Counted from the first letter of the stretch, positions 30,167 to 43,674 are shown. The stretch is 64,000 nt of DNA from an uncultured delta proteobacterium (GCA_963775425.1 CAVZJB010000018.1:64001-128000); one strand, 5' to 3'. Translations and numbers: made by a program. Notes: generated by a model not told the origin, from the letters alone.

Positions 30167-32890
30167 ATGGTCGACGTCGCCGACGCGCTGCAGGATCTCG
30201 CCGAAGAGGCGAGCGACGCGCCGGCCCGGCCGAAGGCGGCGGCCAAGCTCACGCTCGCGGACATCGAGCGCCTCGTCGCCGCCGAGAGCCTGGACCTCCC
30301 CGCCGCGATCCGCTCCTACCTCGCCGCGCCCGACGTGGAGCCCGCGAAGAAGCCCGCCGACTTCGTCAGCGTCGACACCCTCCGGCGCCAGCTCGCCGCC
30401 GCTCGTCGACGTCGCCACAAGCAGCAGCGCAAGGAGGCGAGCACCGAAGCGTGGCGCAAATTCATGCAGCAGCGCGCGCTGCCCGAGCGCATGAAGCTCG
30501 CGGACATCGTCGTCGCCCTCCACGAAAGCGGCAGCGAAGCCTCGCGCGCGCTCCTCGTGCGCATCGCGCGCGAGGCGCCGTTGTCCATCGGGTTGTGGGG
30601 CGGCGTGAAGCGCGTGTGGAAGCGCGCGGAGCAGCGCTTCGACGTCCTGCTGTGGGCGGCGCTCACCGCCGCCATCGAGCACAACGCCGGGGTCGGCGAC
30701 GACGTCGGCCCCGGCACCCGCCGCTACGTCTCGCGCCGCGCGTGGCGCACGCTGCGCGACCTCGGGCGCGCGTCGCCCGAGATGTTCCCGACCGCGGCCG
30801 CCGAGCTGCTGCGCCACTACACCTCGTGGGGCACCGTGATCTCGCGCGTGATGTACCTGCGGCCGTCGGACCCGCTCTACGCCACGTGGAAGACGTCGCC
30901 CGAGCCCCTGTGGCGCCTCGTCGAGGGCGCGCAGATCGAGGCCGTCGCCCGCTTCGCCGCCGACGCGCTGCGAAAGCTCCACGCCGACGCGCTGCGCGCG
31001 CTCCCGCCGGCGCGCCTCGCCCGCCTGGTCGAGCGCGAGCCGGCGCTGTCGGCGGCGCACGAGCTGTTCCTCGAGCTCGTCGAGAAGTCTCCGAGCCTGC
31101 CGAAGGCCAAGCTGCGCGAAGCCGGCCTGCACGACGCCGCGCTCGCGCTGTTGTTCTCGCCGTCGCAGCAGGCGCGGGTGTGGGCCGTCGAGTACGCGCG
31201 CGCCCACGCCGACGACCTCGCCGTCGACGCCGTGGTCGCCCTCGTCGAGCGCGGCCAGGGCGAGGTGCAGCAGCTCGGACTGCAGCTTCTCGAGCCCGTG
31301 CCGGCGGCAACGCTCGACATCGACGTGCTCGCGCGCCTCCTCGACGTCGCCGCGGCGGTCCCGCTGGTCGACAAGAAGCTGCGCGCGCGGCTCGACGCCG
31401 TCGACGAGGAGGCGCGCACCGCGTTCCTCGTGCGCTGCGCGCTGACGGGCGCCGCGCAGGCGAAGTTCGTGTCTGCGGGGGCCACCAGCGCCGAGGTGTG
31501 GCTGCGCGTGCTCGAGGACGAGCGCTGCGACAACCGCCTCGCCGAGCTCGCGCTGCGTCAACTCGGCGCGCAAAACGGCGGTGACCCCGTCGCCGTCGTC
31601 GACGCCGCGCGCCTCCTCACGCTGGTGGCGCACAAGCCGCAGCACGCGGCGGTGGTGGGCGCGCTGTTCGACAAGGCCGCGCGCGCCAACGAGCTCGACG
31701 TCGAGCGCGCCAAGGGGCTCGTGTTCCCGTCGAAGACGCGCGCGTTCGCCCTGCGCGTGCTCGGCAACCGCAAGCTCGTGCGGCCGCTCGACCTCGGGCT
31801 GCCCTGGCTCCTGGCGCTCGCCAAGCGCGCGGACCCCGACCTGCACCGCTTCGCCTACGCCACGCTCCTCGAGCACACGCGCCCCGAGGACTTCGCCCCC
31901 GCGGCAGGCGGCGACGGCGACGCCGGCGCGCGCGGCGTCGAGCGGCTGTTCCACATGGCGACGGGCGCGGCGGAGAGCGACAACACCCGCGGCTTCGCGC
32001 AGACGTACCTGCGCTGCCACCACCCCGTGCTCGGGCCGCAGGAGCCGCAGGCGCGGCAGCTCGGCTTGTCGCCGCAACTGTCGCGCGACGCGTTCACCCT
32101 CGAGCGGCTGTGGCCGGCGCTGTTCGACCCGCGCGAAGACGTGCGCCGCTTCGCCGCCTCGGTGGCGCGCCTCGAGCTGCGCCGCTGGGGCGCGCAGCGG
32201 CGGCTCGCGGAGCTGTGCGAGAGCGATGACAGGCAGGTGCGCAACGTCGCGCTCGACGCCATGCTCAGGGCCGGCGACCCCGCCGCCGACCCCGACACCA
32301 CGCTCACCCTCGACGAGCTCGACGCCGAGGTCATCTTCCCGCTCACCGAGTCGAGCAAGAAGAGCGTGCGCGAGACGGGGATGGAGCTCATCCGGCGGCA
32401 CTACGCGCGCCTCGGCGGCGTCGACAGGCTCGCGTGGCTGATGCAGTCGGCGGAGCGGGACGTGCGCTCGTTCGCGGTGCGCCTGCTGTGGGAGAAGCAC
32501 CGGCCGCGGTCGACGCCCAAGGGGTGGCAGCCGCGCGCGGGCGTGATCTTCGACGACGCCGGGCGCTTCGCCGACGGCGTCGCCATGCGCGGCTTCCTGC
32601 GCCGCGTGCTGCTCGCGCTGCCGCCGGGGGCCTCGCCCGGCGGTGACGACGACAAGGTGCGCAAGCACGTGCCCGCGAGCGTGGCCAAGCGGCGGCTCGT
32701 CGAGGTCGTGCGCGACATCGCGGTGGCCGACGCCGCGTTCGCCGCCGTCGTGACGCCCGTGCTGGCGGAGATGACCGGCTCCTTGGCCAAGGGCGAGTGG
32801 CAGGCGTGCCTGGCCGCCGTGCGGGCCATCGAGAGCGCGCACAAGAGCGGCGGCGCGCTCGCCCTGCCGCGCTCCGGGGGGCAGGCGTGA
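30167..32890 (+). CDS. Large all-helical ARM/HEAT-like protein, first gene of the retron-associated block
   Basis: GAGGAG RBS, ATG 30167; HEAT-like segments (DPREDVRRFA, DRQVRNVAL, KKSVRETG, ERDVRSFA); GTGA overlap with the next gene. Confidence 0.75.
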   Translation: MVDVADALQDLAEEASDAPARPKAAAKLTLADIERLVAAESLDLPAAIRSYLAAPDVEPAKKPADFVSVDTLRRQLAAARRRRHKQQRKEASTEAWRKFMQQRALPERMKLADIVVALHESGSEASRALLVRIAREAPLSIGLWGGVKRVWKRAEQRFDVLLWAALTAAIEHNAGVGDDVGPGTRRYVSRRAWRTLRDLGRASPEMFPTAAAELLRHYTSWGTVISRVMYLRPSDPLYATWKTSPEPLWRLVEGAQIEAVARFAADALRKLHADALRALPPARLARLVEREPALSAAHELFLELVEKSPSLPKAKLREAGLHDAALALLFSPSQQARVWAVEYARAHADDLAVDAVVALVERGQGEVQQLGLQLLEPVPAATLDIDVLARLLDVAAAVPLVDKKLRARLDAVDEEARTAFLVRCALTGAAQAKFVSAGATSAEVWLRVLEDERCDNRLAELALRQLGAQNGGDPVAVVDAARLLTLVAHKPQHAAVVGALFDKAARANELDVERAKGLVFPSKTRAFALRVLGNRKLVRPLDLGLPWLLALAKRADPDLHRFAYATLLEHTRPEDFAPAAGGDGDAGARGVERLFHMATGAAESDNTRGFAQTYLRCHHPVLGPQEPQARQLGLSPQLSRDAFTLERLWPALFDPREDVRRFAASVARLELRRWGAQRRLAELCESDDRQVRNVALDAMLRAGDPAADPDTTLTLDELDAEVIFPLTESSKKSVRETGMELIRRHYARLGGVDRLAWLMQSAERDVRSFAVRLLWEKHRPRSTPKGWQPRAGVIFDDAGRFADGVAMRGFLRRVLLALPPGASPGGDDDKVRKHVPASVAKRRLVEVVRDIAVADAAFAAVVTPVLAEMTGSLAKGEWQACLAAVRAIESAHKSGGALALPRSGGQA

Positions 32891-42330: not shown

Positions 42331-43674
42331 GTGTCTGAGCTCGAGCGCTTCGTCTCCGCCGACGCGCCCGTGCTCCTCCCCGAGGAGCCGCCGCCGTCGC
42401 GCCGCGAGCGGCCGCGCCCCGACAGCGACGTGGAGGAGCGGGTGCGGCGCTGGCAGCAGATCGAGGCCGCCGGCGGCGTCGAGGCGTGGATCGAGGTGGA
42501 GCTCAAGAAGAAGGGCTTCGTCGACGAGACGCAAAAGGAGCGCAAGAAGGCTGAGGCCGTCGAGCGCCGCGCGCTCAAGAAGCTCGCGTGGCGCGCCTAC
42601 ACGGCCACGCACATCAACCACGTCGGCGCCGTGCACTGGTCCGACCACGTCGACGCCGACCGCTTCGACGTCGAGGAGCGCGAGGCCCGCGCGCAGTCGC
42701 TCGGCATCCCCGCCATCGAGACGCCGCAGGCGCTGGCGGCGCTCCTCGGCCTCACCATCCCGCAGCTGCGCTGGTTGTGTACGCACAGGGACGTCGACGA
42801 CGGCAGCCACTACCGCCGCTTCACCATCGACAAGCGCGACGGCAGCCCCCGCACCATCGCTGCGCCCCTGCCGATGCTCAAGGACGCCCAGCGCTGGGTG
42901 CTGCAAAACATCGTCGACAAGCTCGAGGTGCACGCCGCCGCCCACGGCTTCCTCGCCGGCCGCAGCATCGTCACCAACGCGCGGGCGCACGCCGGCGCCG
43001 ACGTCATCGTGAAGATCGACGTCCGCGATTTCTTCCCCACGCTCGACTACCGGCGGGTGAAGGGGCTGTTGCGCAAGGCCGGCCTCGTCGAGCAGACGGC
43101 CACGCTGTGCGCGCTTTTGGCCACCGAGGCGCCGCGCGACGTCGTCAGGTTCCGCGGCAAGACGCTGTACGTCGCCACCGGGCGACGGGCGCTGCCGCAG
43201 GGCGCGCCGACCTCGCCGATGATCACGAACGCCGTGTGCCTGCGGCTCGACAAGCGCCTGAGCGGCCTCGCCCGCAAGCTCGGGGTCGTCTACACGCGCT
43301 ACGCCGACGACCTGACCTTCTCGTATCGGGGCGATCCGCGGAAGGCGCCCACGGGCATCCTCGTGGCGAGCGCGCGCAAGATCCTGGCCGAGGAGGGCTT
43401 CACCCTCCACGACAAAAAGACCGCGGTGTTGAAGAAGGGCATGCGGCAGAAGGTCACCGGCCTCGTCGTCAACGAGGCCCCCGGCCGCCCGCCCGCGCGG
43501 GTGCCGCGCGCGGTGCGCCGCCGCCTGCGGGCCGCCATCCACAACCGCAAGCAGGGCAAGCCCGGGAAGCCCGGCGAGAGCCTCGCGGCCCTCCAGGGGA
43601 TGGCGGCCTTCGTGTACATGACGGACCCGGTCGCGGGGCGCCGCTTGCTCGACGACGTCCGCGCCCTCTCCTAG
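42331..43674 (+). CDS. ret: Retron reverse transcriptase, myxobacterial Mx162 type with N-terminal extension
   Basis: Region X NARAH, LPQGAPTSP, YTRYADDLTFS, region Y VTGLVVN; probable GTG start at 42331 just after msd. Confidence 0.95.
   Translation: MSELERFVSADAPVLLPEEPPPSRRERPRPDSDVEERVRRWQQIEAAGGVEAWIEVELKKKGFVDETQKERKKAEAVERRALKKLAWRAYTATHINHVGAVHWSDHVDADRFDVEEREARAQSLGIPAIETPQALAALLGLTIPQLRWLCTHRDVDDGSHYRRFTIDKRDGSPRTIAAPLPMLKDAQRWVLQNIVDKLEVHAAAHGFLAGRSIVTNARAHAGADVIVKIDVRDFFPTLDYRRVKGLLRKAGLVEQTATLCALLATEAPRDVVRFRGKTLYVATGRRALPQGAPTSPMITNAVCLRLDKRLSGLARKLGVVYTRYADDLTFSYRGDPRKAPTGILVASARKILAEEGFTLHDKKTAVLKKGMRQKVTGLVVNEAPGRPPARVPRAVRRRLRAAIHNRKQGKPGKPGESLAALQGMAAFVYMTDPVAGRRLLDDVRALS

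Follow-up and report, generated by a model that had tools for sequence, protein, structure and literature searches.

The first retron ever found was Mx162, and the locus described here almost certainly holds an intact retron of the same family, type XIII. It occupies positions 30167-43674, + strand, of a 64,000-nucleotide (nt) stretch of DNA from an uncultured delta proteobacterium (GCA_963775425.1 CAVZJB010000018.1:64001-128000), hereafter the window, in whose coordinates all positions are given. The block consists of three protein genes (g1, g2 and g3), an RNA gene (msr-msd) and the gene of a reverse transcriptase (RT).

In the available text of Mestre et al. 2020 (PMC7736814), type XIII corresponds to RT clade 10 with an RNA structure of its own, counts Mx162, Mx65, Sa163 and Ne144 as its named members, and is accompanied by a SWIM protein (cluster 114) and by HEAT/ARM proteins, the HEAT/ARM partner sometimes being encoded by two genes (clusters 259 and 1688). 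The cluster 114 protein is described there as having a DEDE-type acidic motif, a winged helix and the motif CxCx12CxH; for its DEDE motif the type is filed under retrons with predicted nucleases, an origin from an IS256/Mutator-type DDE transposase is proposed for the protein, and co-evolution of the RT with the partner proteins is reported. Because this description already gives a SWIM protein with two HEAT/ARM genes, the five-part layout has been classified before. An earlier note on this DNA, made from the sequence alone, had presented it as a functionally uncharacterised five-part system; a view of it as undescribed cannot be maintained given that text and the PADLOC models that exist for each part. 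The note's link to a type XIII with ARM, SWIM and WGR partners was correct. The layout is thus real but no new kind of system; what the window adds is that the five-part form reaches a deep uncultured branch of the Myxococcota with every part intact.

Comparison with type XIII retrons

The assignment to type XIII follows from matches of all four proteins to type XIII models of PADLOC, together with the RT motifs. The g1 protein matched PDLC02921 (E 1.6e-196), g2 matched PDLC02919 along nearly its whole length (E 0, 1147 bits, model positions 5-1968 of 1972), g3 matched PDLC02972 (E 2.4e-144), and the RT matched RT_XIII (PDLC02956) with E 3.3e-148 and 492.6 bits, the next model following at E 4.2e-88 and 294.6 bits. 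The NAxxH, YADD and VTG motifs of the earlier note were found as NARAH, YADD and VTG in the frame 41893-43674.

The Myxococcus xanthus locus (L053), which we take to be Mx162 (Retron-Mxa1) itself, as the 485-aa length of its RT supports, has the same order g1-g2-g3-msr/msd-RT. Its RT and g3 are 56% and 54% identical to those of the window, respectively, and its RNA gene can be aligned base by base with that of the window and forms the same helices. The two loci differ in the length of the RT (485 residues (aa) in M. xanthus, 447 aa in the window) and in the spacing of the first two genes, which are separated by about 1 kb in M. xanthus and overlap in the window; moreover, the g2 of the window has an acidic repeat tail and no overlap with g3, and a terminator-like hairpin follows g3. 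The g3 of the window stands at a similar distance (54-60%) from those of Myxococcus and Sorangium, and the host is accordingly a deep uncultured branch of the Myxococcota.

The commoner form of type XIII has three or four genes and comprises a WGR-like/HEAT-ARM protein, a SWIM protein and the RT. The genome of the window (8.26 Mb, 18 contigs) contains two type XIII retrons, the second of which lies on another contig (C4, L085:3086-11417, - strand) and encodes a 502-aa Pfam-WGR protein, an 876-aa WGR_XIII/HEAT-ARM protein, a 580-aa SWIM protein and a 468-aa RT. It matches RT_XIII and SWIM_XIII as the window does, and it keeps both the acidic block and the SWIM finger. It differs in having the single 876-aa HEAT/ARM gene where the window has g1 and g2, in a SWIM protein that ends right after the zinc finger without a tail, and in the separate upstream 502-aa gene with a clear Pfam WGR domain. 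The Mx162-type RNA profile gave no match to the RNA gene of this second retron, and PADLOC was without a model for its 502-aa WGR gene.

Linkage of the parts across relatives

The linkage of the parts was surveyed from g3, using an alignment of 18 g3 sequences, which yielded 170 relatives in species-representative genomes; the best 80 loci were kept. As the search started from g3 and not from the RT, it is a fair test of whether the partner genes occur independently of retrons. All 80 loci belong to the Myxococcota, except for two whose records were given a different title by the depositors. In 70 loci g3 was followed by 2 kb of DNA or more; the RT lay at most 1.2 kb from g3 and on the same strand in 63 of these and at 2.7-4.5 kb in four more, leaving three without an RT in the DNA examined. 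One of these three contigs ends inside a displaced msr-msd, and the other two, both from Archangium, have an Mx162-type msr-msd and RT elsewhere in the genome, once about 60 kb downstream on the same strand. Upstream, g2 was present in 63/65 and g1 in 56/64 of the loci with enough DNA; some of the loci without g1 may be due to a larger g1-g2 gap that pushes g1 off the locus. Two natural fusion proteins, one joining SWIM_XIII to RT_XIII (1088 aa) and the other joining WGR_XIII/HEAT-ARM to SWIM_XIII (1409 aa), argue for a physical association of the parts. The parts of type XIII are kept together across the phylum, and the independent occurrence of the three genes in relatives, which the earlier note had named as evidence that would count against a joint system, was not observed among the close relatives surveyed; the 7 of the 70 loci without a nearby RT are split by insertions or cut by contig ends.

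The junction between g3 and msr is a hotspot of insertion, with inserts of 2-4.7 kb in five loci (L021, L032, L035, L037 and L070) and a split in two further Archangium cases, L044/L089 (about 60 kb) and L033/L090. In A. lansingense the cognate msr-msd and RT lie about 60 kb downstream of g3 on the same strand. The insert of one Archangium locus (L037) encodes a GMC oxidoreductase and a Tox-REase-5 toxin/Imm52 immunity pair.

Reverse transcriptase and RNA gene

The RT was also matched by RVT_1 (Pfam), and alignment with 18 orthologues (56-61% identity) places its start most likely at GTG 42331. The RT of Ec86 matches residues 266-589 of the RT frame (E 1.6e-37), so that an N-terminal extension of about 120 aa lies ahead of the Ec86-alignable part.

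In the RNA gene, a1 (42017-42034) pairs with a2 (42267-42284) as the core of the inverted repeats, two small msr stem-loops lie at about 42050-42085, and 42134-42163 is joined to 42191-42220 in a perfect msd stem of 30 bp. The fold had a z-score of -11.8 against shuffles. The intergenic region and those of 13 related loci, M. xanthus L053 among them, could be aligned base by base, and the consensus fold of this 14-sequence alignment comprised 89 pairs with 92.7% of the cells paired. Changes on both sides of a pair were seen in 61 of the 89 pairs, a number reached in none of 500 shuffles, and only 24-37 such pairs were counted in a control in which the partners were slid by 1-3 columns. The sequence of the long msd stem is almost wholly different between lineages, with the pairing kept. 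These compensatory changes indicate that the RNA structure is maintained, and they bear out, together with the repeats, the stem and the fold score, the intact msr-msd of the earlier note. A sequence profile of the RNA gene matched 69 of the 80 related loci. No Rfam family was matched at gathering thresholds, and E-value thresholds let through nothing but chance matches of hairpins to microRNA models.

Two or three Mx162-type msr-msd copies were present in six loci, standing in tandem before the RT in four (L048, L049, L062 and L082), while in L013 and L015 one copy lies before the RT and one or two after it. Six other loci (L031, L034, L039, L042, L050 and L083) have a g3-RT spacing of only about 130-160 nt, and no Mx162-type msr-msd was found in these loci; in the three of them examined downstream of the RT (L031, L034 and L083) none was found there either. 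The 1088-aa SWIM-RT fusion (P0125) probably comes from this group of short spacing.

All four protein genes are under purifying selection. Pairwise omega values were lowest for g3 (0.08-0.29), the most constrained of the four, followed by 0.17-0.40 for the RT, 0.18-0.44 for g1 and 0.21-0.34 for g2, these values being inflated since codon bias depresses the synonymous divergence (dS) in these genomes. Two Sorangium values for g2 were left out, as the stop-to-stop frame ran upstream of the gene. Against this background, it is very improbable that the three upstream genes are unrelated neighbours or that the retron is a relic without activity. Such a view would fit the hairpin and T-run behind g3, which suggest separate transcripts, and the tolerance of Archangium for insertions of 2-60 kb between g3 and the RNA gene, but it is at odds with a gene order conserved across the phylum, the fusion proteins, open reading frames (ORFs) that are all intact and selected, the retained catalytic YADD and the compensatory changes of the RNA.

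The SWIM protein g3

The SWIM zinc finger of g3 (CxCx12CxH) is encoded at nt 41486-41539. Pfam SWIM matched the window's g3 only weakly (E 0.007), yet it matched 18 of 18 aligned homologues, in which C487, C489, C502 and H504 of the finger are invariant. Upstream of the finger, an acidic block (nt 40370-40507) contains D115, D123, E128, D133, E134 and H154, all invariant in 18/18 homologues, and D160, which is kept in 17/18. The paralogue on contig C4, 34% identical, has this block as well, and most of the published DEDE motif is invariant among the homologues.

The assignment of a WGR domain to the tail of g3 (nt 41585-41845), also made in the earlier note, is weakly supported. Pfam WGR (PF05406) gave no match at g3 in a six-frame search of the genome, but a profile-profile comparison with WGR domains returned P 0.0024 and a probability of 12%, the WG[RK] motif being in register. 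Two g3 homologues bear a source name with WGR. A stored g3 homologue fell in the Atlas into SWIM-family clusters only, with no named enzymatic fold, and one actinobacterial SWIM cluster there has a DprA-type winged helix in 13% of its members.

Possible function

We tentatively read the locus as a retron defence system in which g3 reads the RT-bound product of the RNA gene on a scaffold of g1 and g2 and has a metal-dependent activity, a proposal drawn by analogy and to which we give somewhat less than an even chance. As in retrons in general, the RT would use the msd part as template for the multicopy single-stranded DNA (msDNA), a molecule of RNA and DNA that has a long hairpin and branches from the 2'-OH of a guanosine. 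The RT-msDNA particle would, in type XIII, associate with g3, which may read msDNA or DNA ends via its winged-helix, SWIM and WGR-like parts, whereas g1 and g2 would provide scaffold or sensor surfaces. Phage infection might then disturb the msDNA complex and release the activity of g3, as in characterised retrons, where RT-msDNA holds a toxic partner protein in check. This activity could be a metal-dependent cleavage of nucleic acid by the invariant acidic cluster, and it would stop the infected cell. The very large solenoid scaffold put forward in the earlier note, with SWIM/WGR binding msDNA or DNA ends, is a plausible idea. The invariant acidic cluster of the SWIM protein and the fusions that tie the parts together are what any account of function has to explain.

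The characterised retrons (Ec86/Eco1, Ec78, Ec67, Eco8 and Sen2) have, like the window, a retron RT, an adjacent msr-msd and linked partners. The window differs from them in partners with no recognised toxin or ATPase domain that amount to 3865 residues in total, in the extra N-terminal region of the RT and in its apparently vertical inheritance, where the characterised retrons are island-borne.

Several observations weigh against a metal-dependent, defensive g3. No experimental function was found for any type XIII retron in the literature available to us, in agreement with the earlier note, and no phage-defence data for the type were found there. The last (fifth) acidic position of the published motif varies in g3 homologues. 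The g3 profile matched no solved structure in the PDB even at E 10, and an hhalign comparison with three IS256-type transposases was not significant (P 0.58); with profiles this shallow, the test lends no support to a derivation from transposases. The retron proteins contain no Walker A motif, and Pfam, NCBIfam and PADLOC revealed no recognised toxin, nuclease, NADase, ATPase or membrane domain in them. The statement of the earlier note that no such motif is present thus stands for ATPase, membrane and toxin domains, while its nuclease part clashes with the DEDE motif described in the available text of Mestre et al. 2020. The distribution, too, differs from that of typical defence genes. The system was present in all sampled genomes of two genera (28/28 and 18/18), its neighbours in the window are housekeeping genes (dnaN 12.7 kb upstream, then dtd, parA, parB and bactofilin; gatB downstream), and dnaN was 120-150 kb away from the locus, on the opposite strand, in 7/7 complete genomes of Myxococcaceae that were examined.

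The absence of a detected nuclease family also leaves room for a defence system in which g3 is a non-catalytic DNA-binding protein, with a clamp-like core, winged helix, SWIM and WGR, and would do harm in that a host factor is sequestered or recruited on the scaffold of g1 and g2. Two similar short hairpin-like motifs of g3, at residues 116-128 and 255-267, hint at repeated domains, although the internal repeat was not significant (P 0.12), and the very large, repeat-rich accessory proteins would suit binding surfaces. However, five invariant acidic residues and a histidine within 46 residues suit a metal site better than the surface of a clamp, the comparison of g3 with DnaN was not significant (P 0.58; shallow profiles), and no candidate host target is known. 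We consider this explanation unlikely.

Distribution and chromosomal position were examined in 251 genomes of the phylum that were at least 90% complete. A full g2 orthologue (E at most 1e-100) was found in 72 of these, namely in 64/104 genomes of family f14, 5/17 of f10, 1/17 of f8 and 2/7 of the family of the window genome. It was not found in the other 179, among them an unpublished genome (G178), and the system is accordingly dispensable. The order to which the window genome belongs includes a family with genomes of 0.3-3.4 Mb (f4), and a SWIM_XIII match was seen in none of its 21 sampled genomes. The codon usage of the retron genes is host-like, with a GC content at third codon positions (GC3) of 0.95-0.97, and the system looks vertically inherited.

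The core-like presence in some genera and the stable near-origin position in the Myxococcaceae are further points that any account has to cover. They could mean that the system has been domesticated for a role other than defence, with msDNA as a structural cofactor of a large WD40-HEAT-SWIM/WGR complex that serves chromosome biology, the sensing of DNA damage or DNA ends, or developmental signalling. Its presence in 46 of 46 genomes of the two genera, the host-like codon usage, the neighbouring dnaN, dtd, parAB, bactofilin and gatB, the distance to dnaN and the lack of a toxin-like domain are in line with this, as is the binding of WGR domains to DNA breaks in PARP enzymes. On the other hand, in 3/3 Sorangium genomes the locus lies 3.6-4.4 Mb from dnaN, and an origin-proximal position is hence not universal. 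Synteny of the flanking genes was not found across the loci, the flanks not being conserved beyond close relatives, and the toxin-immunity cassette inside the Archangium locus would fit a variable region. Moreover, the system was missed in most of the phylum, and, in the literature available, all retron types tested so far act in phage defence. A domesticated role therefore appears somewhat doubtful. An elaborate form of it, which we rate as improbable, would be a chromosomally fixed, vertically inherited myxobacterial nucleoprotein machine that does not act by abortive infection. In it, the msDNA hairpin would be the built-in ligand of a non-catalytic clamp/winged-helix/SWIM/WGR protein on a WD40-HEAT scaffold of >3000 residues, and the machine would link the state of DNA ends, DNA damage or replication near the origin to a response of the cell. 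Whether defence with a metal-dependent g3 or one of these roles applies, the function of type XIII is better testable in M. xanthus than in the uncultured organism of the window.

Helical-repeat proteins g1 and g2

Residues 76-227 of g1 resemble the middle of the WGR_XIII model (PDLC02973; E 2.3e-30). No Pfam or NCBIfam family was matched by g1, a sequence search of the PDB with g1 gave no match, and a word-based homologue search returned g1 alone; its relatives were therefore taken from tblastn on the surveyed loci. No solved structure of a type XIII partner protein was found in the PDB or in the literature available. For g2, Pfam confirmed both labels of the earlier note, with HEAT_2 at E 4e-53 (9 stretches) and WD40 at E 1.9e-15, the propeller lying at about nt 33010-33753.

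The protein ends in an Asp/Asn-rich tail of about 130 residues, encoded by 36 copies of a 9-bp repeat. None of the relatives' g2 ORFs compared has such a tail (Asp+Glu in the last 130 residues 0.03-0.16), and most of them have a basic motif at the end that abuts or overlaps the start of g3. From this comparison the acidic tail is taken to be lineage-specific; it might be DNA-mimicking or autoinhibitory, or just a repeat expansion. Gaps of 1-3.4 kb between g1 and g2 were seen in Archangium (L017, 167-3552) and Myxococcus (L053, 2455-3477), and the gap of the former contains ORFs that match no Pfam family, of which two run on the opposite strand.

Locus layout and surroundings

All parts of the retron are present and intact (Table 1). 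The three co-oriented genes, the overlap of g1 and g2, the msr-msd and the RT reported in the earlier note were each recovered. The window is rich in GC (0.70-0.79 across the retron region), and the four long frames of the + strand had GC3 values of 0.92-0.97, compared with 0.67-0.84 in overlapping antisense ORFs. The GTG start of g2 lies over the TGA stop of g1, giving GTGA. The neighbour upstream of g1 encodes a Ser/Thr kinase that has three cyclic-nucleotide-binding domains; it lies on the other strand, which makes g1 the first gene of the block. From the stop of g3 (41848) to the a1 repeat (42017) there are 168 nt, which include a perfect 14-bp hairpin (41968-42000) followed by the T-rich run before the RNA gene. 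Hairpin and T-run are likely the terminator of a g1-g3 transcript, as predicted from the sequence; the hairpin was missed by the structure-consensus scan, and the stretch is not conserved in relatives.

Table 1. Coordinates of the retron features in the window.
Feature	Position	Strand	Description
g1	30167-32890	+	907-aa helical-repeat protein, PADLOC HEAT-ARM_XIII; GC3 0.97
g2	32887-39945	+	2352 aa, N-terminal WD40 propeller, then HEAT repeats (PADLOC HEAT-ARM_XIII); GC3 0.95
Acidic Asp/Asn-rich tail of g2	39613-39939	+	9-bp tandem repeat
g3	40028-41848	+	606-aa SWIM_XIII protein
Likely terminator	41968-42010	+	Perfect 14-bp hairpin and T-rich run
msr-msd RNA gene	42017-42284	+	a1/a2 repeats, stem-loops, 30-bp msd stem
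Retron RT	42331-43674	+	447 aa from GTG 42331

The dnaN-parAB-bactofilin region occupies 19032-26292 of the window. At the other end, the DNA from 52000 to 64000 has a lower GC content (0.60-0.68), with genes for an integrase of phage type (58446-59300) and for a ParE toxin (59568-59882). Lying about 9 kb past the retron, to which it seems to have no relation, this DNA is probably an integrated element.

The yeh cluster of Escherichia coli, with YehF (WGR), YehI (DUF4132), YehL (MoxR ATPase), YehP (VWA) and YehQ (SWIM), has with the window a common vocabulary of WGR, SWIM and a long helical protein, but it is without an RT, and the window is without MoxR or VWA genes. Homology was considered and rejected, since alignment with g3 was limited to the zinc finger of YehQ and a weak match to the WGR of YehF, and g1 has no similarity to YehI. 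The likeness, as far as these alignments go, is one of resemblance and not of membership.

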